NCBI GenBank assembly: GCA_964371555.1
Contig: CAYJMQ010000001.1
Location: 10,882-72,542, forward strand
Length of the DNA: 61,661 bases
Source: an uncultured bacterium
Lineage (GTDB): Bacteria; Bdellovibrionota; JACOXK01; 2-02-FULL-40-11
Direction of reading: 5' to 3'
The position numbers were made by a program, and so were the translations under genes. Position 1 is the stretch's first letter. Each line of letters opens with the position of its first letter. The notes beneath the pieces are model-generated. The model was given only the letters and a program-made list of their open reading frames with translations. It ran no database searches and had not been told where the DNA came from. This document shows positions 1,949 through 41,468 of this stretch, piece after piece.

Positions 1949-3359
1949 TCTGATTGTGATCGGAGGGGGATCCGCTGGATTGGTCTGCTCGGCAGGCGCT
2001 GCGGCGATCGGGGCGAAAGTGGCGCTGATTGAGAAGAAAAAACTGGGGGGCGATTGTCTCAATACCGGTTGTGTCCCTTCAAAAGCGCTTATTCGATCAG
2101 CCAAGGTTATCCATACGCTAAGATCAGCGGAACAATTTGGAATCCGGGAGTGTCAGTTTGAATTTGATTTTTCAGACATTATGCGGCGTGTTAAAAATGT
2201 GCAGGGGACGATTGAGCCGCACGATTCGCCTGAAAGATTTAAGGGGCTGGGGGTTGATGTCAAATTCGGAAACTATTCTTTCAAGAGCGCTCACGAACTG
2301 ACAAATGGCGAGCATACCCTTTTTGGAAAACGAATTGTCATCGCAACAGGATCTTCTCCGGTTGTCCCTCCCGTCCCTGGCTGTGAAGAAGCGAAATGCC
2401 TGACGAGTGAAAATATTTGGGATATTCAATCGCTGCCAAAGCGATTTGTCATTATAGGCGGGGGTCCGATCGGTTCTGAACTGGCGCACGCTTTTTCAAG
2501 ATTTGGCAGTAAAGTAACCCTGATCGATTTTGCCCCCGGAATTCTGATGCGTGAGGATCCCGACTTGAAAGCGGTGATTGAGTCCCAATTCCAAAAAGAG
2601 GGGATTCAGTGTCGTTTCAGCGCGAAGGTTCAGCGTATTTTGCATGCGGCGACGCATCATATTGTGTCGATAGAAACTTCGGGGAGGGAAGAAAATTTTG
2701 AGTGCGACGCGATTTTTTTAGCCGTTGGAAGAAAGGCGAATACAGGCGGACTTGGGCTTGAGAAAGTTGGGATTGAGATGAATGAGCGGGGCATTGTCAT
2801 AAACGATTATGGTCAGACCTCTTTGAAGCATATCTATGCCTGTGGCGATGTGGCGGGCTCTTATCAGTTTACGCATTTTGCCGATTATCAGGCGAGAAGG
2901 GTTCTTCGAAACGCGCTTTTTCCCGGCAGGGCGAGGGTGGTCACTGATGTGGTCCCCTGGTGCACGTTTACCGATCCGGAACTTGCGCGTGTGGGGCTTT
3001 CAGAAACTGAAGCGAAGCAGAGAAAAATCGCGCATGATGTTTATAAGTACGAAATTTCCGAACTCGATCGGGCTGTTTGCGAGGGAGAAACCGCCGGGCT
3101 TGTAAAGGTGATTACAAAAAAATCTTCAGATAAAATTTTAGGGGCGGCCATTGTCGGGCCTCATGCGGGCGATCTGATTCAGGAACTTGTTTTGGCGCTT
3201 CAAAAAGGGATCGGACTAAAGACCCTTGCTTCGACGATGCATCCCTATCCGACGATGGCAGAGGTCTCAAAAAAGGTGAGCGAAGTCTGGCTGCGGAGCC
3301 TCTTAAAACCGTGGATGATAAAAATCCTTCAGGTTTATTTTCGAATGTTATTTCGTTAA
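1932..3359 (+). CDS. FAD-dependent pyridine nucleotide-disulfide oxidoreductase (dihydrolipoyl dehydrogenase / mercuric reductase-like)
   Basis: N-terminal GxGxxG (IVIGGGSAGL), redox-active disulfide GGDCLNTGCVPSK, second Rossmann motif GGGPIGSE, and a C-terminal dimerisation domain (HPYPTMAE). It overlaps dedA by 17 nt. Confidence 0.9.
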   Translation: MRQNYDLIVIGGGSAGLVCSAGAAAIGAKVALIEKKKLGGDCLNTGCVPSKALIRSAKVIHTLRSAEQFGIRECQFEFDFSDIMRRVKNVQGTIEPHDSPERFKGLGVDVKFGNYSFKSAHELTNGEHTLFGKRIVIATGSSPVVPPVPGCEEAKCLTSENIWDIQSLPKRFVIIGGGPIGSELAHAFSRFGSKVTLIDFAPGILMREDPDLKAVIESQFQKEGIQCRFSAKVQRILHAATHHIVSIETSGREENFECDAIFLAVGRKANTGGLGLEKVGIEMNERGIVINDYGQTSLKHIYACGDVAGSYQFTHFADYQARRVLRNALFPGRARVVTDVVPWCTFTDPELARVGLSETEAKQRKIAHDVYKYEISELDRAVCEGETAGLVKVITKKSSDKILGAAIVGPHAGDLIQELVLALQKGIGLKTLASTMHPYPTMAEVSKKVSEVWLRSLLKPWMIKILQVYFRMLFR

Positions 3360-3772
3360 CCAAAGAATTTTTTATGTTCTATCAAAAGACAACGATCCAT
3401 AACCACATCCATTCCATTGGATATCGCTTTTTGCGCGGCCTGCTCGTGTTCCAACCCGAGCTGCATCCAGACTGCTTTGGCCCCAATTTTAATCGCTTGG
3501 TCAACAATTTCCGGAATGAATTCGACACGGCGGAAGATATCGACAATGTCAATCGGGAATGGGATTTCTGAAAGTGAGGTGTACGCTTTCTCCCCCAGTA
3601 CTTCTTCTGTGTCCGGGCGGACGGGTACAATCTTATACCCTTTGGACTGCAGGTAGCTTGATACCTCATAGCTCGGTTTCGTGGGATCGGGAGAGAGACC
3701 CACAACGGCAATTGTTTTTGTTTGCTCAAGAAGCGCTTTGATTTGTGAGTCTTGGGTCAGTATGCTGGTCAT
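3356..3772 (-). CDS. CoA-binding domain protein (YccU/YneT-like)
   Basis: TIAVVGLSPDPTKPSYEVSSYLQSKGYKIVPVRP is a typical CoA-binding fold N-terminus. Start taken at the internal ATG (MTSILTQ). Confidence 0.75.
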   Translation of the reverse strand: MTSILTQDSQIKALLEQTKTIAVVGLSPDPTKPSYEVSSYLQSKGYKIVPVRPDTEEVLGEKAYTSLSEIPFPIDIVDIFRRVEFIPEIVDQAIKIGAKAVWMQLGLEHEQAAQKAISNGMDVVMDRCLLIEHKKFFG

Positions 3773-23969: not shown

Positions 23970-24009
23970 TTTCCCTTCGTGATAATCGTCAAAAGCTATT
24001 AGGGATTTA

Positions 24010-24048: not shown

Positions 24049-24059
24049 AGGGAGTATTC

Positions 24060-27079: not shown

Positions 27080-27119
27080 GGGTGATTTGGCTTCGTCTCA
27101 ACCCAAAAGCGGGTTAGCT

Positions 27120-28787
27120 ATGTCAGAGACATTTGACGTCATTATTATTGGCGGTGGAATTAACGGGACTGGAGTTGCCAGAGACTGAGCGCTTCGCGGG
27201 TTAAAAACATTACTGATTGAAAAGAAAGATTTGTGCGGCGGAACCTCCGGCTCTTCTTCGGGAATGATTCATGGCGGGCTTCGTTATCTTCTTTATGATG
27301 TAAAGACAACGAAGATTTCATCGAAAGACAGCGGTTATATTCAAAAAATCGCCCCTTTTTTATTATTCCGGATCCCTTTTTTATTTCTGATTCATGGGAA
27401 AGAAGGGCCAAATGTGGAGTTTCTTGAAACCTTTTTTGAAATTTATGATCGTTATTCAAAATTAAAAAATGCGAAGCTGCATACCAGACTGAATCAAGAG
27501 GAGGTTCATCGCCTCGAACCTGGCCTGGCTTCTGACATTACAGGGGCAATCACATTTGATGAATGGGGGGTCGACCCCTATCGTTTATGCCTGCTTAACG
27601 CGAAAGATGCCGTACGCTCGGGGGGAGAAGTTTTGCTTCATACGGAAGTCGTAGATCTCTTATTCTCTCAGGATGGGAAGGAGAAAAGAGTCAGCGGTGT
27701 TCGTGTTCGCACCCGAGACAGAGGGTATAAAGATTATTTTGGAAAGGTTGTTTTAAATATTTCAGGTCCATGGATTTCAAAAATTTGCAAGATGGCCGGG
27801 GTTGATCTCAGGCTGAGGCCCGGCAAAGGAATTCATATTGTCTTTGATCGGCGGATTTCAAACATTGCGTTAATGACGCAGACGATCGACCGCCGGTCGG
27901 TTTTTCTCCTTCCTTATGAGAATACTTCGATCATTGGAACAACAGATGACGATTTTTATGGGGATCCGGATCATCTGGAGGTGACGCAGGATGAGGTGGA
28001 ATATCTGTTTCAGGCGATTGAACGGGTATTTCCGGATATTCGTAAATACCGGGTCATAGCGACTTATGCCGGTATCCGTCCAACGCTTTATGAATGGGGG
28101 AAGCTCGAAGACGAGCTTTCCCGCGAACATAAAATTTTTGATCACAGTACAGAGGGGGTGGAAGGTTTTTTAACGATGGCTGGCGGGAAGCTTGCAAGTT
28201 ATCGTCTAATGAGTGAAGAACTGACGGATGTTGTTTGTAAAAAATTGAATCTCAGGAAAAAATGTGAAACGCATCAACGGCCGCTTCCCGGGGGTGAGGA
28301 TTTGATTTCGGCTGACGAACTCAAAGCGATGGCAGCGCGCGCCGGAATCTCTCTTTATGCGCTCTCCCGTCTCTATTTTCGTCATGGGGGGGGGATTCGT
28401 GATATTTTTTGTTTTATTGAGGAGCATCCGTCGTAACGTCGTCTGATTTGTGCGGCCGGGCCGGTTCTCGGAGCAGAGATGCGTTATGTGATTTCAAAAG
28501 AGTGGGCTGAGTCACTCGATGATATTGGAAGAAGAACACGACTGGGGTGGGGAGGCTGTCAGGGGGGCGATTGCGTCTGGCCGGCGGCGCTCATTTTAAA
28601 GGAAATGCTGGGTAAAGATCCTGTGAAGGAGGCCTCCATTTTTTTACAAAAACGTTGGAAATCTCTGATCCCTTGTTTCGAAGGAGATGCCGTCGCGCAG
28701 GAAGAGCTTAAATTTCAATGGCTTCATCTTTCTCAGCTTCCGGCTCAGCTTCCGGCACATCTGCCGGTCTCAGAGGTAAGACCATGA
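27120..28787 (+). pseudogene. glpA: Anaerobic glycerol-3-phosphate dehydrogenase subunit A (GlpA-like), single frame interrupted by TGA (27186-27188) and TAA (28434-28436)
   Basis: MSETFDVIIIGGGINGTGVARD-TGA-ALRGLKTLLIEKKDLCGGTSGSSSGMIHGGLRY aligns with E. coli GlpA DVIIIGGGATGAGIARDCALRGL. After the TAA the same frame continues into the BFD-like domain RRTRLGWGGCQGGDC. There are no frameshifts. Functional status is unresolved. Confidence 0.75.
28734..28769 (+). repeat. 12-bp tandem repeat x3 in the glpA tail (encodes QLPAQLPAHLPV)
   Basis: CAGCTTCCGGCT CAGCTTCCGGCA CATCTGCCGGTC. Confidence 0.85.
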
Positions 28788-30004
28788 AAGTTGATCTTTG
28801 TGTGATTGGAGGGGGGCTTTCAGGGACTCTGTCTGCCGTTCATGCCGGATCGAAGGGGAAGCGGGTGGTTTTGGTCCGGAGTGGATGGGGGGGGACAGCG
28901 CTTTCCTCTGGGGCGTTCGATGTGGCAGATACATCTCATGAGGGTTTTGAGATCAGGGATCATATAGAACAGATTAAAAAAGAGTATCCCGACCACCCCT
29001 ATCATTTTCTGAATTTTGAAAATTTGAGCCCTGCTTTTGAGCTTTTAAAAAAGGTGTTTCCATTCCGGATCCTGGGATCGTATCGTGAAAATCATCTCTT
29101 TCTTTCACAAATGGGGCGTTGGCTCAGGCGCGCGTTTGCGATGGAATCCCAATCTTTTGATTTTAAGGTTTCTGGCCGGAGAAAGGCTCTCGTCATCGGT
29201 TTTTCACCAATGATCCCAGCCCCTCTTCTTCAGTCTGAACTCTGTATATCGGAATCAGTTCCGTGGCATCGCAATGAAGTCAATCTTCTCCCCCAGACGA
29301 TGGCAAAGTTTCTCGATCGGCCCGAGGAGCTTCAAAATCTTGCCAAACATATTAAATCAAAAATAAAATCGCATTTCTTCCAGGCGCTTCTGGTTCCGCC
29401 GGTCATTGGTCTTGATTATTTTAGTGAACGGCGGCGTGAGCTCGAATCCCTGATGGGATGCCCCGTCTATGAAACATTGGGGGGGAGCAATTCAGTTCCC
29501 GGTATCCGGTTTCAGAGGGGGCTCGTGGAAGCCCTCCGCTCTCAAAATATTGCCGTTATAAATGGAAGGGCTGAAAAAGTGAGAAAAGAAAAGAAAAAAA
29601 TTTTGGCAATCGGGGGATATGAAGACAGCGGAGATCTTTTTGAAATTGAAGCTTCTTCTTTTGTTTTGGCAACGGGGAAGTTTCTGTCAAGGGGGATTCG
29701 TATCAAAAGAAGTGGGCGCATTTTTCAGGAACCCCTCTTTCATCTCCCTTTATTTTATAGGGGAACGCCGGTTTCCGAGATGAGTCCAGGCTCTTTGTTA
29801 AGAGATGACTTTTTTGAAAAACAGCCTTTTTTGGAGGTTGGTGTAAAAACAAATCGTCGGCTTCTTCCACTGGACGACAGCGGAGAAATTGTTTATGAGA
29901 ATCTTCGTGTGTGTGGAACACTGCTTTATGGCTTTGATCCTTATGGGGGGGAGAGCCGGTTTGGCGTTTCCATGCTTTCGGGCTATCAGGCGGGGGAAGC
30001 ATAA
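28784..30004 (+). CDS. glpB: Anaerobic glycerol-3-phosphate dehydrogenase subunit B
   Basis: MKVDLCVIGGGLSGTLSAV...ALSSGAFDV parallels the E. coli GlpB N-terminus. ATGA overlap with the glpA stop. Confidence 0.8.
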   Translation: MKVDLCVIGGGLSGTLSAVHAGSKGKRVVLVRSGWGGTALSSGAFDVADTSHEGFEIRDHIEQIKKEYPDHPYHFLNFENLSPAFELLKKVFPFRILGSYRENHLFLSQMGRWLRRAFAMESQSFDFKVSGRRKALVIGFSPMIPAPLLQSELCISESVPWHRNEVNLLPQTMAKFLDRPEELQNLAKHIKSKIKSHFFQALLVPPVIGLDYFSERRRELESLMGCPVYETLGGSNSVPGIRFQRGLVEALRSQNIAVINGRAEKVRKEKKKILAIGGYEDSGDLFEIEASSFVLATGKFLSRGIRIKRSGRIFQEPLFHLPLFYRGTPVSEMSPGSLLRDDFFEKQPFLEVGVKTNRRLLPLDDSGEIVYENLRVCGTLLYGFDPYGGESRFGVSMLSGYQAGEA

Positions 30005-30016
30005 CCCAGAGGAATA

Positions 30017-30042
30017 ATCCAGAAGAACTATCCAGAAGAACT
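30017..30042. repeat. 13-bp perfect tandem duplication (ATCCAGAAGAACT x2), intergenic
   Basis: Read directly. Ends 3 nt before the ATG at 30046. Confidence 0.9.
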
Positions 30043-30045
30043 ATA

Positions 30046-30462
30046 ATGAAGAGCACTCTCAAATGGCTTTACGCCAAATTCAATCTTGCGGTCGCCTTTC
30101 TTTTGCATCTTTTTTTTAAGCGATGGTTTCGAAAGCGCGGGCTTAAAGAATTTTTGGCATTTTATTCGAAAGATCATGTATTTGCGCTGACTGGCGGCGA
30201 GCGAAAAAATAACCACGCATTTGGAAACTGTATCTATTGCGGGCTTTGTGTGAGCGAGTGCCGTGAAGTCAACCCGGGTTTTTACGAAACATTTGCAACG
30301 CCGGCTGGCATTGCCTTTTCCTATTCGCGGTCGTTGCCTGAGATTTCAATGAACACTGATTTTCTTTCCTATTGCCCTGACTGCGCGGCTTGCGAAAGGG
30401 TTTGTCCGATGGGGGTTCCATTGAATCAAATTGTGGGATTTGTGAAGCATCATGCGGGATAA
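30046..30462 (+). CDS. Small 2x[4Fe-4S] ferredoxin-type protein with hydrophobic N-terminus (GlpC/GlcF N-terminal-like, lacks CCG domains)
   Basis: CIYCGLCVSEC and CPDCAACERVCP cluster motifs. N-terminal segment FNLAVAFLLHLFF. Confidence 0.75.
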   Translation: MKSTLKWLYAKFNLAVAFLLHLFFKRWFRKRGLKEFLAFYSKDHVFALTGGERKNNHAFGNCIYCGLCVSECREVNPGFYETFATPAGIAFSYSRSLPEISMNTDFLSYCPDCAACERVCPMGVPLNQIVGFVKHHAG

Positions 30463-31855
30463 AATTTTAAGTCAGCTGGAATCCCTATTTCCAGAGAAAA
30501 TTTCTCCAAAAATTTCAATTAACGAGAAAGATCTGCTTCTGCACGCCGGCGATCTGTGGCCGCGAAAATTAATCCGTCAAAGGCTAGGGGAAAAGATTGA
30601 ACTCCCGCTGGCGGTGGTTCGTCCTTCATCGACGGAGGATGTTCAAAAAATCGTTCAGTGGGCAAACAGGGAAAAAATCGCGCTGATCCCTTATGGAGGG
30701 GGAACGGGGGTCTGCGGCGGGACGCTCCCTGTCGTTCAAAGTGTCGCGGTCGATCTCAAGGAACTCAATAAAATTAAAGAAATCAATCTCGACTCGCTCT
30801 ATGTGACTTCTGAAGCGGGAATTTTGGGAGGGGAGTTGGAAAAACGGCTCAATGAAAAAGGGGTTTCGCTCTGTCACTTTCCAACCGCTTATGCGATTTC
30901 AACACTGGGCGGCTGGATTTCAACGCGCGCATCGGGGCAGATGTCTACCGCTTACGGATCGATCGAAAATATGGTGTTGGCCCTAAAGGGGGTGCTTCCG
31001 ACCGGGGAGCGCATCGAGACAAAACTTGTTCCGAGATCTGCTGCCGGATTTTCAGTAAAAGACCTTTTTATCGGGGGTGAGGGAACGATGGGAATTGTGA
31101 CCGAGGCAACCTGCCAGGTGCACAGACTCCCTTCGCTCCAGGAGTTTCTTTCATTTTCAGTCGGCTCGGTTCGGGAGGGGCTGGAGGCAATCCGGAAACT
31201 GATTCAAAAAGGAATACGCCCCGCTGTGGTTCGCTTTTATGATGAGATGGATACTCAACTTGCGCTTTCTGAAATGGGACTTGACACATCGGGAAATCTT
31301 TTGGTCTTTGTTTTCCAGGGAGAAAAAGAAATAGTCCAATTCCAGAGGGTGCAGACAGAAAAAGAAATATCGGCTGTCGGTAAAAATCTTGGAGAAAAAC
31401 CTGCCCGCCATTGGTGGGATCATCGTTTTGATTTGGATCATCATAAGTTAACGCAGATTCTTTCGCAGGAAGGGATGATACTTGACACCATAGAAGTTGC
31501 GGCGACATGGAGCAATCTCCAAGGGCTCTATGAATCGATGAAGAAGGCGATGTCTGAAGCGGGGGTTGCAATCCTCGCTCATTTTTCGCATTTCTATCAT
31601 ACCGGAGGATCGATCTATTTTACCTTTTTTGGAAATTTCCCTGATAAGGAGACATTAGAAAAATACGATCTTGTCTGGGAAAGGGCGATGGAGGCATGCC
31701 TTGCGGCAAAAGGCACGATTAGTCATCATCATGGCATTGGCCTTTTGCGCAAAAAATGGATTAAACGTGAACTGGAAAGCGGCTGGGATCTGATGGATAA
31801 AATTAAAAAGACGCTCGATCCCAACCATGTTCTTAATCCCCAAAAAATCGTATGA
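30452..31855 (+). CDS. FAD-linked oxidase (PCMH-type), alkyl-dihydroxyacetonephosphate synthase-like
   Basis: FAD_binding_4-like N-terminus (LAVVRPSSTEDVQKIVQWANREKIALIPYGGGTGV). The C-terminus GTISHHHGIGLLRKKWIK closely resembles the eukaryotic AGPS stretch SISHHHGVGKLRKQWL (recalled from memory) rather than the GEHGIG of GlcD/D-LDH. Confidence 0.7.
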   Translation: MRDKILSQLESLFPEKISPKISINEKDLLLHAGDLWPRKLIRQRLGEKIELPLAVVRPSSTEDVQKIVQWANREKIALIPYGGGTGVCGGTLPVVQSVAVDLKELNKIKEINLDSLYVTSEAGILGGELEKRLNEKGVSLCHFPTAYAISTLGGWISTRASGQMSTAYGSIENMVLALKGVLPTGERIETKLVPRSAAGFSVKDLFIGGEGTMGIVTEATCQVHRLPSLQEFLSFSVGSVREGLEAIRKLIQKGIRPAVVRFYDEMDTQLALSEMGLDTSGNLLVFVFQGEKEIVQFQRVQTEKEISAVGKNLGEKPARHWWDHRFDLDHHKLTQILSQEGMILDTIEVAATWSNLQGLYESMKKAMSEAGVAILAHFSHFYHTGGSIYFTFFGNFPDKETLEKYDLVWERAMEACLAAKGTISHHHGIGLLRKKWIKRELESGWDLMDKIKKTLDPNHVLNPQKIV

Positions 31856-32784
31856 ATTCCACGGTTGTGATTGTGAATCCAAAGGCGGGCTCTTTGGGGG
31901 AAGCTATGGGCCGCGCTGGAAAGAAATGGAGGGATATAGCCAAAAAGTGTGATTTTTTTGGCCCGTATGAAGAAATCTATTCGAAACGGATCGGCCATAT
32001 TGAGGAGTTGACCCGGGAATGTCTGAAAAAGGGGGCTCAAAGAATTGTCATTGCGGGGGGGGATGGTTCGTTATCGGAAGCGCTCAACGGTTTTTTTGAA
32101 AATGACAAGCCGATTCGTGACGATGCTGTTTTAGGTTCGGTTCCGCTGGGGACCGGATCTGATTTTTTAAAAACCTTTGGTATCTCCAATGTCGATCAGG
32201 CGGTGGAAGCGCTTAAAAAAAATCGCATTACCTCCATAGATATCGGTGAAATCAGATCTCTGCATCAGCCCCGAAAGAGGCTTTTTTTAAATATCGCAAG
32301 TTTTGGTTGTTCGGGAGAGGTGGTGCGAAAAGTAAATGCGTTATCCCCGCTTCAAAAAAAGTTATTAGGGGGGGGGCTTTCTTATTTTTGGGCAACGCTT
32401 TCTACATTTCTAACCTATAAAAATTCGCTGATAGAATTGGAAATTGAGGGGAAAGGAAAGAGCGGATTTAAGACCAGCAATATCTTTGTCTGTAATGGAA
32501 AATATTGTGGAGGGGGGATGCTTTGGGGACCGAATGCCGATATCAGTGATCGTCTGTTTGATCTTACGATTGTCAAAGAAATTTCAAAATTGAGAGGGTT
32601 CTATGAGATGGGAAAAATCTATAAAGGTCGTGTTCTCGAGATTGATGCTGTGGAGCAAATTCGCTGCCAAGAATTTGTTGCGATGTCAGATGAACATGTG
32701 ACTATCGAAGCGGACGGCGATCTCTTTGGGACTTTACCCGCGCTTTTCCGGATTTATCCTCATAAGATCAAATTCAATATCTAG
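31852..32784 (+). CDS. Diacylglycerol kinase-family lipid kinase (YegS/BmrU-like)
   Basis: N-terminal VVIVNPKAGS and the DAGK catalytic motif RIVIAGGDGSLSEALNG. ATGA overlap with the upstream gene. Confidence 0.85.
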   Translation: MNSTVVIVNPKAGSLGEAMGRAGKKWRDIAKKCDFFGPYEEIYSKRIGHIEELTRECLKKGAQRIVIAGGDGSLSEALNGFFENDKPIRDDAVLGSVPLGTGSDFLKTFGISNVDQAVEALKKNRITSIDIGEIRSLHQPRKRLFLNIASFGCSGEVVRKVNALSPLQKKLLGGGLSYFWATLSTFLTYKNSLIELEIEGKGKSGFKTSNIFVCNGKYCGGGMLWGPNADISDRLFDLTIVKEISKLRGFYEMGKIYKGRVLEIDAVEQIRCQEFVAMSDEHVTIEADGDLFGTLPALFRIYPHKIKFNI

Positions 32785-32882: not shown

Positions 32883-33015
32883 CTATCTAGAGATATTAAA
32901 GAAAGATTAAAAAAGGAAATTTGTGCTTTCATGTTTTTAAAAATGGGTTACAATTCTCTTTAGGACGTTAGTCTGGTCATTGAGTTAAACAGTGGAACGT
33001 GGGTGGAAGAGAGAA

Positions 33016-33657
33016 GTGATTTTTTCACATATCATAATAAAAAAGACATTTAAAATCTTAAGCGCCAGTGGTGTGGCGGTGTTTCTCTTTAGCTGCGGAG
33101 GAGGCGGAGGGCCGGGCGACATTCCTCAAACGGCGCCGTCTATAGCCGTTGAAACACCACAGAAGACCGTCCTGTCAGTGGCTGTTGAAGGATTGGCGGC
33201 CAACGAAAAGAGGACGGTATTTTTCTCTGATGCGCAAGGCAATAAAATTGCAGAGGCTCAAACATTTGATGGAAAGGCATCCATTGAAGCCTTTCTTCGG
33301 CAAAGTGAAAGCGGTTTCTTTCGGGTAAGGATTCAAAGAGAAGGACTCCCCGATCTGGATACTGCTGTTCAAGTTCAAGCAGGGCAGCAGGGTATTGCTG
33401 TTCAAGTAACACCTGCCACCACCCTTGCGAGTCTTTTGGGGAGAACATTCAATGCCTCAGGACAGGAAGGCCTGCAGAGAGCAATTCGCTGTTACGGCGA
33501 GATTATTAAAACATTAGCTCGACCATCAGTTGAAAATGCCCTTTTGGAATTGGAAAATTTGCCGAAAAGTCCGGATTTAAATACGCTTAAAGGAGGAACC
33601 AGTGCGCTTCAGGAAGTTTTGCGCCAGGTGTTTGCTCGGATCAATACTTGTCCTTAA
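33016..33657 (+). CDS. Hypothetical lipoprotein (cargo X, gene 1)
   Basis: A GTG at 33016 gives MIFSHIIIKKTFKILSASGVAVFLFSCGGGGG, i.e. signal plus lipobox. The longest ORF starts at 32992. No recognised domain. Confidence 0.6.
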   Translation: MIFSHIIIKKTFKILSASGVAVFLFSCGGGGGPGDIPQTAPSIAVETPQKTVLSVAVEGLAANEKRTVFFSDAQGNKIAEAQTFDGKASIEAFLRQSESGFFRVRIQREGLPDLDTAVQVQAGQQGIAVQVTPATTLASLLGRTFNASGQEGLQRAIRCYGEIIKTLARPSVENALLELENLPKSPDLNTLKGGTSALQEVLRQVFARINTCP

Positions 33658-34942
33658 TCAGTTTGAGCAGGAGAGCCTGGCACAGGAAGTTAAGCTATGC
33701 GACCCAGTGACACTTTTAAGTCAGGTCGACGTTTCCCCTCTTTCTGATTTGAACCTTGGAAGTGACCGAAGATTACTCAAAATTCTTGATGACTTTGATT
33801 TTGATGGAAAAGCAATGTTGCTCAAAGAAAAAATCAATTTTCAAGATGGGTGTTCTGTGGAAATCGATCTGACTGTTCTGGGAATAGAGCTTTTTTCAAT
33901 TGAGAAAAATTTAAAAACGGGACAAGAAACGGAGATCAAGTATCCGCTTCTTGCACCAGGGTTCAACGGCGAGATTACCAGGTTGGTATTTACGGGACTG
34001 ATGTATGAAGCGGATGACGAAAATATCCTTGAAGGAGATCGGCATACAGACACGGCGAAGGATATGTTGGCTGATTTCATTAAGGGAGCGCGTGAGCTTT
34101 TTCCATCCCGGGATCCGCAAAGTCCCACAAACTTTGTTTGTAATAGCGTTATCATCTCAGCCGCCCGTGATAAAGTTTCCTTTACCAAATCATTTATTGC
34201 GCGTGATGTCGCAGGAAATTCCGCGCTAAAAAAAACCGTGCAGCTGAATTTAATCTTAAGCGGCTTTATAAGATGCTGCTGTCCAATCTCAGAAAAACTT
34301 CTGGGATTGAATGAGGGGGCATGCAGTGTGATCACGACTTCCCGGCTGATGACAGAAAATGGCCTGACTTCAGGAAGAAGCTTTATTCCCGATACTCAAA
34401 TGGAGAAGATCTCGTCGCGGCGTCTTCTCGGTCAAAATTTATTCAACACCCTTTCGGATAGCGTTAAGACGCAGATCAGTCAGAACAGCGAAATCAATTT
34501 CTTGGTCAAGAAGCGGTTTGGAACGTCGGATTTGAATGTTCATCCATTGGTGAGCGGTTTTGAAGTGCAGATGAATGAAAAGAGATCGTTCCTCAATCCT
34601 CTTCTTTCAGATCTTCCGATGGCAGATCTTCTGACAGCTGAAATCAAGGCATTTATCTTTTTTAAGCCAGCGGAATTTTCTATAAAGGGAGCGATCGCCT
34701 CGGGAGGAGCGAGAACCTCGAATTTGCCAACGGAAAAAGAAACCTTTCTTTTTACGGTCATGGGACGCCGGGGCATTGAAGGGATCGGCATCGTGGTCCG
34801 CGACATCAATAGAATAGTTACGACCACAGTCCTCTTTTTTGATGATCAGGCGTCGGCGCTTATTTTGGCCGAACAGCCATTCGATGTTTCTTTAGGTCTC
34901 TTCCCCGCTGTCGCCTTTGACTGCGGTGGGATCGATCGATAA
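33602..34942 (+). CDS. Hypothetical protein, 446 aa (cargo X, gene 2)
   Basis: Long uninterrupted ORF with no recognised domain. Start uncertain because it overlaps gene 1 by 56 nt. Confidence 0.6.
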   Translation: MRFRKFCARCLLGSILVLNQFEQESLAQEVKLCDPVTLLSQVDVSPLSDLNLGSDRRLLKILDDFDFDGKAMLLKEKINFQDGCSVEIDLTVLGIELFSIEKNLKTGQETEIKYPLLAPGFNGEITRLVFTGLMYEADDENILEGDRHTDTAKDMLADFIKGARELFPSRDPQSPTNFVCNSVIISAARDKVSFTKSFIARDVAGNSALKKTVQLNLILSGFIRCCCPISEKLLGLNEGACSVITTSRLMTENGLTSGRSFIPDTQMEKISSRRLLGQNLFNTLSDSVKTQISQNSEINFLVKKRFGTSDLNVHPLVSGFEVQMNEKRSFLNPLLSDLPMADLLTAEIKAFIFFKPAEFSIKGAIASGGARTSNLPTEKETFLFTVMGRRGIEGIGIVVRDINRIVTTTVLFFDDQASALILAEQPFDVSLGLFPAVAFDCGGIDR

Positions 34943-35172: not shown

Positions 35173-35769
35173 ATGACCAAAGACATCCAGATACAGGCAG
35201 AAGTTTTGTCGGAACAGGTGTGTCAGTTTACGGTGGATCAGCCTCTTTATCCCGCTGGTACGGCATATTTTGCAAATAAAGAGGCCGCGAAAGGCTCACC
35301 CCTTGCGGAGGCATTATTTGATTTAGAGGGGGTCGCATCACTTGTTGTTTTGGAGAATGTTTTAAAAGTAACACGAAATCAGTTTGATGATTGGCGTCTA
35401 TTGGCTCAAAAAATAGGAACGGTCATTCGCGAGCAAATTCGCTCGGGTAGAGCGCTTATCTCGCCAGATTTAAAAAAGAATCTCCCTTCAGAAAAAGTCA
35501 TCAAAGAAAAAGTACAAAAATTATTTAATGGGGAGATCAATCCAGCTGTTGCGATGCATGGCGGCTCTGTTGAGTTAGTCGATGTTAAAGAAAACATCGT
35601 CTATGTGCGTCTCGGCGGGGGGTGTCAGGGATGCGGCATGGCCGATGTGACGCTCAAGCAGGGAATCGAACATGCGATTCGCAAAGTTGTCCCTGAAATT
35701 GGAGATATTTTGGATGTTACCGATCATGCCGGCGGGAGAAATCCGTATTATTCTCCCCAAAAGAAATGA
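35173..35769 (+). CDS. Nfu/NifU-like Fe-S cluster protein (Nfu_N + NifU C-terminal domain)
   Basis: C-terminal domain VAMHGGSVELVDV...LGGGCQGCGMADVTLKQGIE with the CxxC motif. Confidence 0.75.
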   Translation: MTKDIQIQAEVLSEQVCQFTVDQPLYPAGTAYFANKEAAKGSPLAEALFDLEGVASLVVLENVLKVTRNQFDDWRLLAQKIGTVIREQIRSGRALISPDLKKNLPSEKVIKEKVQKLFNGEINPAVAMHGGSVELVDVKENIVYVRLGGGCQGCGMADVTLKQGIEHAIRKVVPEIGDILDVTDHAGGRNPYYSPQKK

Positions 35770-37058
35770 ACGAAAGAATTTTACTCCTGATTTCTACCAC
35801 AAGCTACCGAACACATGCCTTTGTTGCGGCTGCCAGTCGATTGGGGCTTTCGATGACTGTCTGTTCTGAACGGCCGAGTACTTTGCAGGCGAAGAATCCG
35901 CAAGGTTTTATCACAGCAGATTTTTTAAATCCTGAATCATTGACAAAAGTGGTTTTTGAATTTTCAAAAAAATATCCGATTGACGCTGTGATGGGTGTGG
36001 ATGATCAGACAGTCATTCCAGCCGCTCAGATTGCGGAGGTGTTGTCGTTAAAGCACAACCCAGTTTCTGCTGTTTATGCGACACGAAACAAGTATGAAAT
36101 GCGCAAACGGTTGGAAGGACATCTCCCTAGTCCCCGTTTTGGGCTCTTCACATTTTATGATGATGCCGCAAAAGTCGCTTCCTCGTTAGGTTTCCCCTGT
36201 GTCATTAAGCCGCTGTCATTGTCTCAAAGTCGTGGTGTGATGAGAGCGGATGATTTAGAAGATCTGAAAGGTAAAATCGCCCGATTGAAGAAAATTCTTT
36301 CCGATTCGTCGCCAGGTGTGGGCGAATGTTTTGAGAGTTATCTTGTTGAAGAATTTATTCCGGGAAAAGAGATAGCTGTGGAGGGATTGCTGATAAATGG
36401 AGAGCTTCGTATTCTTGCCATTTTTGATAAGCCTGATTCCCTGGATGGCCCCTATTTTGAAGAGACGATATATTTAACCCCAACTGAGCTCTCTCTTTCC
36501 ATCCAGGAACAAATTTCTGAAATAACTTCAAAAATTGTTTCCTTACTTGGCCTTTTTGAAGGGCCGATCCATGCAGAGTTTCGTCTGAATGAAAAGGGTA
36601 TCTATCTGATTGAGATAGCAGCGCGATCGATGGGCGGATTTTGTTCGAGCGTGTTGCGATTTGTGAAAAGTAAAGAAGAAGATCCTATCTCTTTGGAGGA
36701 GCTGATCTTTAGACAAAAACTTGGGAGGCAAAAACTTGGAATGGAAACGGAAGGGTATGAAAGAGAGAAAGATGCTGCGGGTGTTTTGATGATTCCTATT
36801 TCCAAAAGAGGGATTTTAAGGGGTGTTCATGGGAAAGAAACTGCAAGGGCTGTTCCAGGCATTGTTGATATGATCATCTCACTCAAGGAAGGAGAAGAAC
36901 TTATTCCACTTCCCGAGGGGGGACGATATCTTGGCTTTATATTTGCCCGTGGGAGAGCCCGTGGGAAAGCCCATGGGAAAGCCCATGGGAAAGAAAGAAG
37001 AGCGGTAGAACTTGCGCTTCGAGAAGCCCATTCGAAACTTGAGATATTGACCTGCTAA
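35766..37058 (+). CDS. ATP-grasp domain enzyme (carboxylate-amine ligase-like), substrate unknown
   Basis: The pattern NKYEMRKRLE...FPCVIKPLSLSQSRGV...LVEEFIPGKEIAVEG...IEIAARSMGG is typical of ATP-grasp folds. ATGA overlap with the nfu-like gene. Confidence 0.75.
   Translation: MNERILLLISTTSYRTHAFVAAASRLGLSMTVCSERPSTLQAKNPQGFITADFLNPESLTKVVFEFSKKYPIDAVMGVDDQTVIPAAQIAEVLSLKHNPVSAVYATRNKYEMRKRLEGHLPSPRFGLFTFYDDAAKVASSLGFPCVIKPLSLSQSRGVMRADDLEDLKGKIARLKKILSDSSPGVGECFESYLVEEFIPGKEIAVEGLLINGELRILAIFDKPDSLDGPYFEETIYLTPTELSLSIQEQISEITSKIVSLLGLFEGPIHAEFRLNEKGIYLIEIAARSMGGFCSSVLRFVKSKEEDPISLEELIFRQKLGRQKLGMETEGYEREKDAAGVLMIPISKRGILRGVHGKETARAVPGIVDMIISLKEGEELIPLPEGGRYLGFIFARGRARGKAHGKAHGKERRAVELALREAHSKLEILTC
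36711..36740 (+). repeat. 15-bp tandem duplication inside the ATP-grasp gene (encodes RQKLGRQKLG)
   Basis: AGACAAAAACTTGGG AGGCAAAAACTTGGA. Confidence 0.85.
36945..36992 (+). repeat. 12-bp tandem repeat x4 inside the ATP-grasp gene (encodes ARGRARGKAHGKAHGK)
   Basis: GCCCGTGGGAGA GCCCGTGGGAAA GCCCATGGGAAA GCCCATGGGAAA. Confidence 0.9.
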
Positions 37059-37702: not shown

Positions 37703-38623
37703 ATGAAAAAACAACTGGCGGTTTTCTTTTTCTGTTCTTCAGCGCTCATGCTTTCCTCCTGCTCTTTTAAATCTATCGCATTGAATATCACCGCGGATCT
37801 CTTTGAAGAGGGGCAGTCGGCGTTTGAAGAAGAGAGTGATCTTCAATTGGCCGAGCAATCGATGGGGGCGAATTTAAAGGTGCTTGAAGCGCTTCTTAAG
37901 TCATCTCCTGATCATGAGGGATTGCTTGTCCTTCTTTCAAAAAGCTATGGGGGGTATTCGTTTGCGTTTGTTGAGGATGCTTATGATGAATTAAAAACAG
38001 AAAATGAAACCAGGGCCGGTTTTCATAAAGAGCGCGCAAGCCGCTTCTATCTGCGCGCAAGGAATTTTTCTTTTAGGGTTCTTAAAGAGGATGCCGATTT
38101 TAAAAATGCGTTAGAGAGAGATTTTTCCACTTTTGCCACTTTTGAAAGATCTCTTGCGAATTTTGACCGTGACGATGTGCCGGCACTTTTTTGGACCGCC
38201 TACAATTGGGGGAACTGGATTAATCTCAATCTTCATTCACCTGCTGCGATTGCCGATGCCCCGAGGGTTGAACGTCTGATGAATCGTGTTTTGGATCTCG
38301 ATGAAAACTATTTCTTTGCGGGTCCGCATATTTTTTATGGAGTCTATTATGGCGGACGCCCCCCTATGCTGGGTGGAAATCCTTCAAAAGCGAGGAATCA
38401 TTTTGAAAAGGCGTTAAAACTTGCCAAAAGAAAGATCCTGATCACGCAGGTTCTTTACGCGCAGTATTATGCGCTTCCCACCGGAAATGAAGAGCTCTTT
38501 GAAGGATTATTGGGCGAAGTTATCAAGGCCGACGATCAGATCTATCCTGAACAGAATTTAATCACGCAGCTTGCCAAGAAAAAAGCGAGAAGACTTCTTG
38601 CAAGAAAGAGTGATTTATTTTAA
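37703..38623 (+). CDS. TRAP transporter TatT-component-like TPR lipoprotein
   Basis: Lipobox ALMLSSC and helical-repeat composition. Lies immediately upstream of the dctP-like gene, as in the TPR-protein-associated TRAP transporters described in Treponema. Confidence 0.6.
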   Translation: MKKQLAVFFFCSSALMLSSCSFKSIALNITADLFEEGQSAFEEESDLQLAEQSMGANLKVLEALLKSSPDHEGLLVLLSKSYGGYSFAFVEDAYDELKTENETRAGFHKERASRFYLRARNFSFRVLKEDADFKNALERDFSTFATFERSLANFDRDDVPALFWTAYNWGNWINLNLHSPAAIADAPRVERLMNRVLDLDENYFFAGPHIFYGVYYGGRPPMLGGNPSKARNHFEKALKLAKRKILITQVLYAQYYALPTGNEELFEGLLGEVIKADDQIYPEQNLITQLAKKKARRLLARKSDLF

Positions 38624-38647
38624 CAGAATAAGGGTGACAGGAGGCAA

Positions 38648-39694
38648 ATGAAGGTGAAGCAGTTTCTGAAACTGAAGGCATTGTTTCTGATCTTTTTAGA
38701 TCTTTGGCTTATGTTGATGTCTCAAGACCTTTTGGCGCTGCATAAAGCAAAATCCCAGAAAATCAAACTTTCGATTTTAGCCCCTGAAGGCTCTACCTGG
38801 ATGAACATTATGCATGAGTTCAACAAAGAGCTCAAAGAACGGACAAACGGAGGGCTGGAGTTTAAAATTTATGCGGGGGGGGTGTCGGGTGACGAGTCGG
38901 ATGTCATACGAAAAATGAGGATTGGTCAGATTCACGCGGGGGGATTTACGGGAGTCGGGCTTGGTCAGATTGTTTCTGATGTGCGCGTTCTTGAGCTTCC
39001 TTTTATTTTCCGTGAGGCGGATGAAGTCGATTTTGTAACCTCTGTTTTAAAAAAAGAGTTTGAAAAAAAATTTGAAGAGAAGGGATTTATTTTTTTGGGA
39101 TGGGCTGAGGCCGGGTTTGTAAATATTTTTTCTACAAAGCCTTTGAAAACAGCCAAAGATCTTCAAAAGGCCAAGATGTGGGCATGGGAGGGGGATCCCC
39201 TTGTGAAAGCCCTTTGCAAAGAGTTTGATATTGTTCCCGTGCCGCTTTCCATCACAGATGTCTTAACCTCGCTTCAGACAGGTTTGATCGATTCGTTTTA
39301 CGCCCCCCCCCTTGCCGCGATCGCGCTTCAGTGGTTTACGAAGGTAAAGTATATGACACAACCGTATCTGGCCAATGCGACGGGCGCTATGGTGATGACA
39401 AAGAAATTTCATGATCAGATTCCAAAGCAGAACCAACAAATTTTAAAAGAAGTGGCCGATAAATATTCAAAAAGAATCATTGAGGCGACACGAAAAGATA
39501 ACCAGGAGTCGTATCAGCAGCTTAAAAAACAGGGGATCGAATTTGTGACAATCGCGCCGAACGAACTTGAAGAGATGACAAAGACGAGCTTGAAAGTGCA
39601 GAGCGCGTTGATTGATCGTCTCTACCCCAAAGAACTTTTAGAGAAAGTCCTTTCAAAAATCCGGGAATATCGAAAAAGCAAAGTTCAATCATGA
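38648..39694 (+). CDS. dctP: TRAP transporter substrate-binding protein (DctP family)
   Basis: About 350 aa periplasmic protein with a DctP-type N-terminus (KLSILAPEGSTWMN), followed by the Q and M genes. Confidence 0.8.
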   Translation: MKVKQFLKLKALFLIFLDLWLMLMSQDLLALHKAKSQKIKLSILAPEGSTWMNIMHEFNKELKERTNGGLEFKIYAGGVSGDESDVIRKMRIGQIHAGGFTGVGLGQIVSDVRVLELPFIFREADEVDFVTSVLKKEFEKKFEEKGFIFLGWAEAGFVNIFSTKPLKTAKDLQKAKMWAWEGDPLVKALCKEFDIVPVPLSITDVLTSLQTGLIDSFYAPPLAAIALQWFTKVKYMTQPYLANATGAMVMTKKFHDQIPKQNQQILKEVADKYSKRIIEATRKDNQESYQQLKKQGIEFVTIAPNELEEMTKTSLKVQSALIDRLYPKELLEKVLSKIREYRKSKVQS

Positions 39695-40191
39695 AGTGGA
39701 CAAAGGCTCTTAATGATAGAATTTCCAGGGTTGAAAGTGTTCTGCTTGTGACCATTGTGCTTTTTATGATTGTGCTTTCGTTTCTTCAGGTGGTTCTCCG
39801 GAATTTTTTTTCCGGTGGTATTACCTGGGCCGATGTTTGTCTTAGAAATCTTGTGCTTTGGGTCGGTTTTATAGGGGCGTCACTCGCAACAAAGGAAAAT
39901 CGGCATATTACGGTCGATGTGGTTACAAAGTTTGTTTCCCCGCTTTTACGGGAAATTGCGGATCTCCTTGCGAGCGCCGTCTCTGTCATCATCGGTTTTA
40001 TCTTCGTCTATGCGTCTGTCCGTTTTGTGATTTCAGAATACAAGGCAGAGACGATCGCATTCTTGGGGATCCCTTTCTGGGTTGTTCAGATGATTATCCC
40101 ATTTGGCTTTTCAATGATTACTTTCCGTTTTGTGCTGAAGGTCATTGAGGATATCGAAGATCTGAGAATCCAATTGAAAGGCTCCAGGTGA
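39691..40191 (+). CDS. dctQ: TRAP transporter small permease (DctQ family)
   Basis: 166 aa with 4 TM segments and 4-nt overlaps on both sides. Confidence 0.8.
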   Translation: MKWTKALNDRISRVESVLLVTIVLFMIVLSFLQVVLRNFFSGGITWADVCLRNLVLWVGFIGASLATKENRHITVDVVTKFVSPLLREIADLLASAVSVIIGFIFVYASVRFVISEYKAETIAFLGIPFWVVQMIIPFGFSMITFRFVLKVIEDIEDLRIQLKGSR

Positions 40192-41468
40192 TATTTCTCC
40201 TTGTGGGAGTTTCTCTTGTTCTTCTGGCGCTATTGGGCGCCCCCCTTTTTGCTGTCATTGGGGCAGCCGCCTTTTTTGCATTCCATTGGGTCGAGATTGA
40301 TATCTCCGCGGTGATCATTGAAATGTATCGCATCGCTTCGGCGCCGATGCTCCTTACGATTCCCCTTTTTACCTTTGCCGGATATGTCATGTCTGAAAGT
40401 GGAACCCCGAAGCGATTTGTAGAGCTTGCAAAAGCGATTGTCGGCTGGATGCCAGGGGGCATTGCGATTGTTTCGCTCCTTACATGCGCTTTTTTTACAG
40501 CCTTCACGGGCGCCTCTGGCGTGACGATTATTGCCCTGGGGGGATTTCTTTATCCGATTCTTATCTCTGAAAGATATTCTGAGAAATTCAGCCTCGGTCT
40601 TGTGACAACCTGCGGGAGTTTGGGGCTTCTCTTTCCGCCGTCGCTTCCGTTGATTTTATATGGATTGGTAGCCCAGGTCAGTATTGATCAGCTTTTTGTT
40701 GCCGGTATTTTTCCGGGCATACTTTTAATTATTCTTCTTTCTCTCTACAGCATGAAAAAGGGGATCTCTTTTCATGTGAAGAGGTCGCCTTTTGTCTTTA
40801 AAGAACTGATTCGAACATTTCGCGCGGCGATCTGGGAAGTCCCTCTCCCTTTCCTGATTTTGGGAGGGATTTACAGCGGCTTTATTACCGCAACGGAGGC
40901 TGCCGCGTTTGCCGCTTTTTATGTTCTCATTGTAGAGGCGTTTATCTATCAAGACGTCAGTTTAACATCGGATCTTCCAAGAATTATTCGGGAGAGCATG
41001 GTTTTAGTCGGCTCGATTCTCATTATTTTGGGATCAGCCCTGGGTCTGACCAATTATCTGATCGATGAGCAGATTCCGATGAAGATTCTCGAATTCATGA
41101 AGGTGTACGTCTCTGACAAAATCACATTTCTTATTGTGCTCAATATCTTTCTTCTGATTGTTGGATGTATTATGGATATTTTTTCCGCTATTGTCGTTGT
41201 GGTTCCGATGATTGTTCCGGTTGCGAGAGTTTTTGAGGTCGATCCGATTCATCTTGCGATTATTTTTCTGACGAATCTCGAGATTGGCTACCTGACCCCT
41301 CCGGTCGGGATCAATCTCTTTATTTCGTCGATGCGATTTCGAAAGCCCGTAACTTCTCTCTACCGTGTGTCTTTTCCGTTCCTGATGGTGCTGCTTCTTG
41401 CGCTTATCATTATTACTTATGTCCCGGATCTGTCGCTTTCGCTCGTGCGGTGGCTGGGGTTAAGGTAG
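40188..41468 (+). CDS. dctM: TRAP transporter large permease (DctM family)
   Basis: 426 aa polytopic protein with typical DctM segments (FTGASGVTIIALG; PPVGINLF). Confidence 0.9.
   Translation: MIFLLVGVSLVLLALLGAPLFAVIGAAAFFAFHWVEIDISAVIIEMYRIASAPMLLTIPLFTFAGYVMSESGTPKRFVELAKAIVGWMPGGIAIVSLLTCAFFTAFTGASGVTIIALGGFLYPILISERYSEKFSLGLVTTCGSLGLLFPPSLPLILYGLVAQVSIDQLFVAGIFPGILLIILLSLYSMKKGISFHVKRSPFVFKELIRTFRAAIWEVPLPFLILGGIYSGFITATEAAAFAAFYVLIVEAFIYQDVSLTSDLPRIIRESMVLVGSILIILGSALGLTNYLIDEQIPMKILEFMKVYVSDKITFLIVLNIFLLIVGCIMDIFSAIVVVVPMIVPVARVFEVDPIHLAIIFLTNLEIGYLTPPVGINLFISSMRFRKPVTSLYRVSFPFLMVLLLALIIITYVPDLSLSLVRWLGLR

Follow-up and report, generated by a model that had tools for sequence, protein, structure and literature searches.

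Introduction

Metagenomic studies take homologues of alkyl-dihydroxyacetonephosphate synthase (AGPS) as a marker of ether-lipid potential. As outlined in part of a review of Razeto et al. (PMC3509576), Arg352, Tyr508 and Arg447 (Dictyostelium numbering, used throughout) are important for AGPS catalysis, the enzyme follows a ping-pong mechanism in which the fatty acid leaves before the alcohol binds, and an extra domain described there as present only in AGPS carries a gate-keeping helix that controls a C16 channel. The Myxococcus xanthus operon MXAN_1676-1675-1674 pairs AGPS with a fusion of fatty acyl reductase (FAR) and acyltransferase, and a 2026 study left the phylogeny of AGPS unresolved (PMC13012113). 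Here we analyze a 61,661-nt stretch of DNA (the window) from an uncultured bacterium of the Bdellovibrionota (contig CAYJMQ010000001.1, positions 10,882 to 72,542), in which a short AGPS-like FAD flavoprotein is encoded within a cluster of five genes, together with glpA-like and glpB-like genes, a small ferredoxin gene and a lipid kinase gene. The original prediction, made from the letters of the window and its open reading frames (ORFs), took this cluster for a glycerolipid or ether-lipid module. Comparison with relatives places the flavoprotein outside AGPS proper and tentatively points to a dehydrogenase module that would pass electrons to iron-sulfur proteins.

Results

An AGPS-related flavoprotein

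The flavoprotein combines a PCMH-type FAD-binding domain (FAD_binding_4, PF01565) with an FAD-oxidase_C domain (PF02913). Its C-terminus reads GTISHHHGIGLLRKKWIK, and the aligned motif is SLSHHHGVGKLRKQWLK in guinea-pig AGPS and SLSHHHGVGYEH in Dictyostelium AGPS; the AGPS motif given in the original prediction is nearly exact against both sequences. The SHHHGIG loop is invariant in the flavoprotein family, and the GlcD-type LctD reads SGEHGIG at the aligned position, as had been expected of GlcD and D-lactate enzymes. When the PDB was searched with phmmer, Dictyostelium AGPS (2uuu; 2.6e-72, 247 bits) and guinea-pig AGPS (4bby; 2.5e-52, 181 bits) were recovered with the best scores, while D-lactate dehydrogenases, glycolate oxidase and LctD scored 110–127 bits. 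Similarly, the first 36 Foldseek matches of an AlphaFold model (pLDDT 83.5) were all AGPS chains (TMq 0.77–0.89, the best at 0.87–0.89), with mouse LDHD close behind (TMq 0.84, TMt 0.86). IMG labels members of this family alkyldihydroxyacetonephosphate synthase. Sequence scores, fold search and the invariant His-His-His (HHH) loop agree in placing the flavoprotein nearer to AGPS than to GlcD or D-lactate dehydrogenase, as first proposed; they speak against a place inside the GlcD clade with HHH common there, and the flavoprotein is clearly AGPS-related.

An ordinary 2-hydroxyacid dehydrogenase of the GlcD/D-lactate type, for example one that acts on D-lactate from methylglyoxal in glycerol catabolism, is very improbable. 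GlcD is the best NCBIfam model for the flavoprotein (TIGR00387), in size and fold the protein is nearly as close to mouse LDHD as to AGPS, and iron-sulfur CCG partners are typical of GlcDEF, but the 194 bits of the GlcD model lie far under its cut-off of 567.9, LDHD, LctD and glycolate oxidase reach only about half the score of AGPS in the PDB search, and the invariant HHH replaces the GEH motif.

Short and long forms

The relationship to AGPS was resolved further by comparing two sets of homologues. A search seeded with Dictyostelium AGPS yielded long forms, which comprise eukaryotic AGPS and bacterial sequences (median 588 aa), and the window flavoprotein's own relatives are short forms (median 477 aa); the two match lists have no sequence in common. 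In a neighbor-joining (NJ) tree of 63 sequences (463 columns, Kimura distances, 100 bootstraps, no GlcD outgroup), eukaryotic and bacterial long forms are monophyletic in 100/100 bootstraps with the window flavoprotein outside, and so by its sequence this protein lies outside the AGPS clade proper.

Diagnostic positions were compared across 120 long and 121 short forms. Arg352, His496, His499 and the HHH loop are present in every sequence of both sets, and Tyr508 in all long forms and 120 of the short ones; the window flavoprotein has each of them. In contrast, Arg447, invariant in the long forms, is Gln, Leu, Lys or Met and never Arg in the short forms (Lys in the window), and Asp237, equally invariant in the long forms, is replaced by Ser, Ala, Gln or Thr (Thr in the window). 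Position 440 is mostly Lys in long forms and Arg in all short forms, that of the window included. An N-terminal WxGWG motif occurs in 111/120 long forms but in 0/121 short forms, and the window protein has none. Long forms also carry about 50 extra N-terminal residues. Following window residue 270 they have a longer insert, with a median length of 34 residues against 14 in short forms, and the window protein is of the short kind. Judged by the description of the AGPS-only domain in the part of PMC3509576 cited above, the missing N-terminal region and inserts are probably the lipid-gating domain of AGPS. The short form would therefore be without one catalytic residue, Arg447, and probably without the lipid-gating region. 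The resemblance to AGPS is real, but membership in the AGPS family fails on several of the features tested. Literature searches on Rv2251, prokaryotic AGPS and AGPS structure found nothing on the short form.

Gene neighborhoods of the two forms

The two forms also differ in the company that they keep. Three bacterial long-form AGPS loci were inspected. The gene lies beside a short-chain dehydrogenase/reductase (SDR), a PF01553 acyltransferase and an NAD_binding_4 reductase in Silvanigrella aquatica; beside an NAD_binding_4 reductase, an acyltransferase, DagK and Lipid_desat (CarF/PEDS1 family) in a metagenome-assembled genome (MAG) of the Bdellovibrionales; and beside an AMP-binding-ACP-acyltransferase protein, an SDR and DagK in a Sulfotelmatobacter MAG. 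The M. xanthus operon with its FAR-acyltransferase fusion agrees with these surroundings. DagK-family kinases are found in two of these clusters, L088 and L089 (Table 1), the former also with the CarF/PEDS1-type Lipid_desat gene, and their gene content suggests that complete aerobic plasmalogen-type gene sets exist outside Myxococcota.

For the short form, a pattern scan identified at least 589 loci among species-representative genomes. Neighbors within 5 kb were counted at 80 loci (L007–L086) from GTDB species representatives, which span Asgard, Thermoproteota, Thermoplasmatota, Actinomycetota, Myxococcota, Binatia, Dormiibacterota, Chloroflexota, Bacillota, Bdellovibrionota and Alphaproteobacteria; the family is common in archaea, Asgard lineages included. 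An iron-sulfur CCG protein resembling GlpC, GlcF or TfrB is present at 50 of the 80 loci, an FGGY kinase at 26, a GlpA/GlpD/GlpO-like protein at 23, a DagK-family kinase at 22 and a second AGPS-like copy at 15. Unbiased clustering of neighboring ORFs placed 44 of 52 CCG genes downstream on the same strand, and where at least 3 kb was available on both flanks, 46 of 52 loci have one partner or more (GlpB counted, the second copy not). FGGY and DagK never occur together (0/80; one-sided Fisher p = 3e-5, not corrected for phylogeny), which suggests that they are alternative kinases for one pathway step. The second copy at myxobacterial-type loci is about 340 aa long and has lost the HHH loop, and the gene order there mirrors glcD-glcE-glcF with the CCG protein third.

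The FGGY genes are true GlpK in Binatia and XylB-like in archaea (Asgard), Chloroflexi and Afipia. Ten Asgard loci (L024, L027, L030, L031, L041, L044, L056, L057, L075 and L085) share the set AGPS-like, GlpC/TfrB-like CCG protein and XylB-like FGGY kinase; they have no GlpA-type gene within 8 kb, and several have an alpha/beta hydrolase downstream. Such a hydrolase follows the short-form cluster at 11 loci in all, L044 being an Asgard representative. The Afipia clevelandensis ATCC 49720 locus (L082) runs from a LacI-type regulator through the flavoprotein and a xylulokinase-like kinase to a CUT1-type sugar ABC transporter, apparently an operon for a sugar or polyol; its kinase exceeds the XylB cut-off, and an iron-sulfur partner is absent. 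A. clevelandensis is a cultured aerobe and would be tractable for genetics.

Partners of long-form AGPS are nearly absent from these neighborhoods. Homologues of FAR, acyltransferase and CarF were found at 0 of 86 short-form loci, and SDR gave a single match (L082). Within the 61-kb window, tblastn with proteins from true AGPS clusters found no acyltransferase, FAR, SDR or CarF homologue, in keeping with the earlier remark that acyltransferase, fatty acyl reductase and reductase genes are not present there.

These observations bear directly on whether the flavoprotein could be a true alkyl-DHAP synthase for ether glycerolipids. GlpAB would then provide dihydroxyacetone phosphate (DHAP), an unlinked acyltransferase would convert it to acyl-DHAP, the flavoprotein would put a fatty alcohol in the place of the acyl group, and recycling of alkyl(acyl)glycerol would fall to the kinase. 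AGPS is indeed the best match by sequence and by fold, R352, Y508 and HHH are conserved, the IMG label agrees, and DagK-family kinases flank long-form AGPS genes too. We nevertheless consider such a synthase rather improbable. The flavoprotein falls outside the clade of long-form and eukaryotic enzymes, has Lys for R447 and lacks D237, the WxGWG region and the long-form insert; iron-sulfur partners would have no role in a redox-neutral exchange. Taken together, the missing gating region and Arg447, the want of FAR and acyltransferase neighbors, the abundance in archaea and the operons of kinase plus dehydrogenase speak against the short form as an ether-lipid synthase. Of the interpretation first given to the cluster, then, kinship with AGPS and conserved gene order stand, and the ether-lipid module is not supported, the usual neighbor being a GlpC/GlcF-like iron-sulfur protein, a hallmark of dehydrogenases.

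Organization and conservation of the cluster

According to the ORF listing and translations, the cluster occupies positions 27120–32784 of the forward strand, and the overlaps and the single gap between its co-oriented genes were reproduced at the positions first reported (Table 1). hisS and aspS lie directly upstream of glpA on the same strand, as they do in the relatives L001 and L092. The five-gene order is kept in every relative recovered (54–100% identity): glpA-glpB-ferredoxin-flavoprotein-dagK is found in L001/L002 (flavoprotein 62% identical), L007, L091 and L092/L093, mostly with identical junction overlaps of 4 or 11 nt, and the ferredoxin gene overlaps its neighbors by 4–11 nt. L094/L095, which are more distant, share the first four genes. 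An archaeal-looking contig (L003/L004) carries the order CCG protein-FGGY kinase-GlpA-GlpB-ferredoxin-flavoprotein-GlpC-like CCG protein, and a Pseudomonadota MAG (L046) has GlpA-GlpB-ferredoxin-flavoprotein-degenerate second copy-CCG-DagK. Conservation of gene order in relatives had been named in the original prediction as a check, and it is seen in L001, L002, L007, L091, L092, L093 and L094; with the same order recurring across relatives, the arrangement exceeds chance. Lipid head-group chemistry is hinted at in the L046 cluster, where DagK is followed by a gene similar to phosphoinositol dihydroceramide synthase (203 bits against a cut-off of 480).

The genes downstream of glpA are maintained. 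An independent assembly (L005) has ferredoxin, flavoprotein and the DagK N-terminus at 100% identity and the GlpB C-terminus at 99%. Relative to the nearest relative, L006, dN/dS is 0.13–0.28 over the glpB, ferredoxin, flavoprotein and kinase genes (0.16 for glpB, 0.18 for ferredoxin and 0.13 for the flavoprotein), and these four genes are under purifying selection. No CCG protein or FGGY kinase was detected anywhere in the 61-kb window by tblastn, and a promoter and terminator scan of 23800–33300 returned fewer sites than shuffled sequences and was uninformative.

Table 1. Positions of the genes and other features named in the text, numbered along the window or the locus given
Feature	Sequence	Position	Strand	Remarks
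glpA-like gene	Window	27120..28787	+	Large subunit, FAD-dependent glycerol-3-phosphate dehydrogenase; two in-frame stops
In-frame TGA, glpA codon 23	Window	27186..27188	+	Stands for the conserved Cys of ARDCALRG
In-frame TAA in glpA	Window	28434..28436	+	Before the C-terminal DAO_C/BFD-like part; aligned with TGG (Trp) in L001
C-x-C site of the BFD-like [2Fe-2S] domain of GlpA	Window	28440..28500		C-A-A or C-A-S in the window and L001
glpB-like gene, 406 aa	Window	28784..30004	+	ATG at 28784; ATGA overlap with the glpA stop
2x[4Fe-4S] protein gene (ferredoxin), 138 aa	Window	30046..30462	+	41-nt gap after glpB
Short-form AGPS-like FAD flavoprotein gene, 467 aa	Window	30452..31855	+	SHHHGIG loop; 11-nt overlap with the ferredoxin gene
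YegS/Rv2252/BmrU-family lipid kinase gene, 310 aa	Window	31852..32784	+	ATGA overlap with the flavoprotein gene
Two ORFs without family match, 221 aa and 446 aa	Window	32992..34942		Directly 3' of the kinase gene
NifU/Nfu-like gene	Window	35173..35769		Precedes the ATP-grasp gene
ATP-grasp (L-amino-acid-ligase-like) protein gene	Window	35766..37058		4-nt overlap with the NifU/Nfu-like gene
TatT-DctP-DctQ-DctM transporter genes	Window	37703..41468		TPR-protein-associated TRAP transporter
Gene after DagK	L046	12013..12882		Resembles phosphoinositol dihydroceramide synthase
Regulator, flavoprotein, kinase and ABC transporter genes	L082	6310..15208		Afipia clevelandensis ATCC 49720
DagK-family kinase in long-form AGPS cluster, with Lipid_desat gene	L088	1819..2592, 2519..3439		CarF/PEDS1-type Lipid_desat also present
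DagK-family kinase in long-form AGPS cluster	L089	4652..5620		

The GlpB-like protein has an FAD_binding_2 domain, and its best NCBIfam model is TIGR03378 (139.5 bits, cut-off 174.15). The 138-aa protein contains Fer4_8/Fer4_17 with two CxxCxxCxxxC motifs and a conserved hydrophobic, basic N-terminus but no CCG domain, so that its Pfam content confirms the original description of a 2x[4Fe-4S] protein. It matches SdhB and the N-terminal dicluster part of GlpC weakly (NF008369, GlpC positions 5–80 only) and is of the GlpC-N-terminal/HdrC/SdhB type. This mini-ferredoxin family is narrow: a profile search found 21 relatives among 5.8 billion proteins, and a metagenome scan with a four-sequence ferredoxin alignment found two loci only. 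At every locus seen, its gene sits between glpB and the flavoprotein gene. The kinase comprises DAGK_cat (PF00781) and YegS_C (PF19279) with a GGDGS motif (IAGGDGS), scores 125 bits with TIGR00147, above the subfamily cut-off of 118.65, and is 21–24% identical to the DagK proteins encoded beside long-form AGPS.

The coupling of the kinase gene to the flavoprotein gene is one of the points in favor of another function, the breakdown of glycerolipid or ether-lipid backbones. The kinase would phosphorylate 1-acyl- or 1-alkyl-glycerol, a GlpA/B-type enzyme would oxidize C2 to give acyl- or alkyl-DHAP, an AGPS-like first half-reaction with water would cleave the C1-O bond to release DHAP and a fatty acid or alcohol, and the ferredoxin would keep the flavins suitably reduced or oxidized. 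The residues that activate C1 of the DHAP moiety are conserved, an association with DagK is common to true AGPS clusters, the alpha/beta hydrolase at 11 loci would fit, and AGPS itself releases its fatty acid before the alcohol binds, according to the mechanism given in the cited part of PMC3509576. We regard breakdown as unlikely all the same. The lipid-channel domain that the same source ascribes to AGPS only appears to correspond to the N-terminal region and inserts missing here, making a C16 tunnel doubtful; the FGGY kinases found instead of DagK in many lineages have soluble substrates; and hydrolysis needs no iron-sulfur output module.

Beyond the cluster, the window continues with genes of other kinds (Table 1). 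The 221-aa ORF that follows the kinase gene has a lipoprotein-like FLFSCGGG signal, and L001 and L092 hold other genes where the window has the 221-aa and 446-aa ORFs. The ATP-grasp protein ends in a basic C-terminal repeat, RGRARGKAHGKAHGKERR. A few kb beyond the cluster, on its downstream side, is the TRAP transporter; its synteny is shared with L001 and L092 and may merely reflect colinearity of related genomes.

Interruption of glpA

The first gene of the cluster had been marked in the original prediction only by an asterisk. The gene is present, but it does not read through, and its two in-frame stop codons have now been located (Table 1). The GlpA-like product matches Pfam DAO (1.6e-53) and is 69% identical to the intact 542-aa homologue of L001; its best NCBIfam model, TIGR03377, gives 304 bits on the N-terminal part and 59 bits on the C-terminal part, under the cut-off of 552.8. 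All relatives have an intact glpA of 533–548 codons, and codon 23 is TGT or TGC in the five relatives L001, L091, L092, L094 and L003. The gene has no frameshift, and its dN to relatives (0.22–0.23) is the lowest in the operon (flavoprotein 0.31–0.32, GlpB 0.44–0.50). With neither a frameshift nor excess divergence in glpA, the stops would be very recent, or variable within the population, or else errors in the sequence; barring such errors, the gene looks like a pseudogene of recent origin. Exact-sequence look-ups with the 102-aa C-terminal ORF and both GlpB start variants found no independent contig covering glpA of the same species; the near-identical contigs L005 and L006 both begin within glpB.

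Readthrough of the TGA as selenocysteine is unlikely and was rejected. The 71 nt over the TGA (27180–27250) fold at −11.5 kcal/mol compared with a shuffle mean of −13.9 kcal/mol (z = +0.93), with no SECIS-like fold and no Rfam match. Searches of the window for tRNA-Sec and other RNA families were negative, and the second stop, a TAA, cannot encode selenocysteine. In a separate observation, the C-x-C of the C-terminal BFD-like [2Fe-2S] domain has become C-A-A or C-A-S in the window and in L001 GlpA, while L003 GlpA retains C-T-C and L003 and L094 retain a Pfam Fer2_BFD match; the 2Fe-2S cluster of GlpA may have been lost in the window's lineage.

The stop at codon 23 probably inactivates the glpA arm in this genome, and the proposal that GlpAB makes DHAP here is doubtful because glpA is interrupted. 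Whether the entire cluster is decaying and non-functional in this organism, with glpA a pseudogene and the other genes relics, has to be weighed at this point. Besides the two nonsense codons, the first of which removes everything after the GxGxxG motif, and the failure to find a SECIS-like fold at the TGA, this lineage is without the CCG partner found in most other lineages. General decay is improbable, however: the glpB, ferredoxin, flavoprotein and kinase genes are intact and have the low dN/dS values given above, L005 carries the downstream genes at 99–100% identity, and glpA itself has diverged less than the flavoprotein and glpB genes. The broken glpA and absent CCG partner do lower the value of this copy as a model locus.

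Discussion

A putative iron-sulfur-coupled dehydrogenase module

The combination of an iron-sulfur CCG partner with a GlcE-like second subunit marks out FAD-linked dehydrogenases whose electrons go to the quinone pool. In a redox-neutral acyl/alkyl exchange neither would have a function, which favors a dehydrogenase over a synthase. The conserved Arg, Tyr and HHH in turn argue that the flavoprotein still handles a DHAP-like alpha-hydroxyketone or a polyol-phosphate head group. Our preferred reading, plausible though tentative, is that the conserved operon encodes an iron-sulfur-coupled dehydrogenase module acting on a backbone of the glycerol-phosphate or DHAP type. From the gene content, its order and conservation, the family placement, the active-site residues kept and lost, the neighborhood statistics and the purifying selection on four genes, we infer a substrate, a direction of electron flow, a complex and a role for the kinase as follows. 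The YegS-type kinase, or elsewhere an FGGY kinase, would supply a phosphorylated glycerol-type substrate, either free or lipid-bound (monoacyl- or alkyl-glycerol). The GlpA/GlpB-like flavoproteins and the short AGPS-like flavoprotein would be the dehydrogenase subunits, the latter binding a DHAP- or glycerol-phosphate-like head group that Arg352, Tyr508 and His-His-His would activate by proton abstraction followed by flavin N5 chemistry. In AGPS it is a fatty alcohol that resolves the flavin adduct; here, electrons would instead exit the reduced flavin through iron-sulfur clusters to the quinone pool. Their carrier would be the translationally coupled 138-aa 2x[4Fe-4S] protein in the window and a GlpC/GlcF-like CCG protein in most other lineages. 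As such, the mini-ferredoxin would replace the GlpC-type partner in the window's lineage and bridge GlpB and the AGPS-like enzyme.

Several observations weigh against a dehydrogenase module of this kind. The conserved Arg, Tyr and HHH serve a redox-neutral reaction in AGPS and fit non-redox chemistry equally well, and no short form has been characterized. Most FGGY neighbors are XylB-like rather than GlpK, and the substrate at those loci may not be a glycerol derivative; 12 loci have a GlpD-type neighbor and no iron-sulfur partner. The window and its close relatives have the mini-ferredoxin only, in place of a CCG protein, and with glpA broken the operon as a whole may not work in this organism. 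DagK-family kinases flank two of the three true AGPS clusters, and together with the lipid head-group transferase-like gene of L046 they keep a link to lipids alive, which makes lipid-bound substrates possible.

A broader and more speculative proposal, which we think unlikely, is that the short forms with their iron-sulfur partners constitute an unrecognized enzyme class in bacteria and archaea, Asgard lineages included. Its members would apply AGPS-type carbanion and flavin-N5 chemistry to substrates with a DHAP or glycerol-phosphate head, whether free or bound to lipid, for example in an oxygen-independent phosphorylation, oxidation and cleavage of 1-O-alkyl or 1-O-acyl glycerol. The eukaryotic and myxobacterial AGPS would have arisen from this stock by gain of the lipid-gating N-terminal region and Arg447.

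Should the short form prove to be an iron-sulfur-coupled dehydrogenase and not a synthase, many bacterial and archaeal AGPS annotations, such as the IMG label, would be wrong; the pattern scan gave at least 589 loci. The family would also be a testable case of a redox flavoenzyme scaffold converted into the redox-neutral AGPS, and it bears on the origin of eukaryotic ether-lipid synthesis.

Comparison with described systems

A comparison with the anaerobic glycerol-3-phosphate dehydrogenase GlpABC reveals the same succession of glpA, glpB and an iron-sulfur gene, with GlpA and GlpB as the best family models and the window ferredoxin matching the N-terminal dicluster part of GlpC. In contrast to GlpABC, both window proteins score under their equivalog cut-offs (304 + 59 against 552.8 bits for GlpA, 139.5 against 174.15 for GlpB), the GlpC position holds the ferredoxin half without CCG domains plus an inserted AGPS-like flavoprotein, and the lineage's GlpA is minus one Cys of the BFD C-x-C, in addition to the interruption of the window gene. 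The kinase agrees with the YegS/DgkB/Rv2252 lipid kinases in its two domains, its GGDGS motif and its passing TIGR00147, and other lineages of the flavoprotein family have an FGGY kinase instead.

Four Actinomycetota MAG loci (L022, L023, L032 and L064) likewise have a short AGPS-like gene followed by a YegS/Rv2252-family kinase gene, with a GlpD-type gene adjacent. Unlike the window, their GlpD gene is divergent, and GlpB and ferredoxin genes are absent. These MAGs show the glpD1/AGPS-like/dagK layout that the original prediction named for M. tuberculosis, where Rv2249c-Rv2252 is presumably a glpD/AGPS-like/dagK neighborhood of this kind. The present finding may give a role to this conserved actinobacterial arrangement of glpD, flavoprotein and dagK.

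The architecture of GlcDEF and the iron-sulfur-coupled D-lactate dehydrogenases recurs in relatives, where a catalytic subunit of the FAD-linked oxidase type, in some cases a degenerate second copy, and a 2x[4Fe-4S] + CCG protein are encoded in the same order. The size and fold of the flavoprotein are similar to those of its GlcDEF counterpart; however, HHH stands for GEH, the sequence scores are half those to AGPS, and the window has neither CCG protein nor second copy, only the mini-ferredoxin.

AGPS itself, also called ADPS (Dictyostelium 2UUU, guinea pig 4BBY, MXAN_1676 and the bacterial long forms), shares with the window flavoprotein the fold of a PCMH FAD-binding domain and FAD-oxidase_C cap, as well as Arg352, Tyr508, His496/His499 and the His-His-His loop. 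The window flavoprotein differs from it in being about 100 residues shorter, without the WxGWG region and a 20-residue long-form insert, and in the exchanges of Arg447 for Lys and Asp237 for Thr, with Arg rather than the usual Lys of long forms at position 440. Its family is accompanied by GlpA/B, iron-sulfur proteins and kinases instead of FAR, acyltransferase, SDR and CarF. The locus brings together parts that resemble GlpABC, GlcDEF and AGPS, and it is one of a large uncharacterized family.

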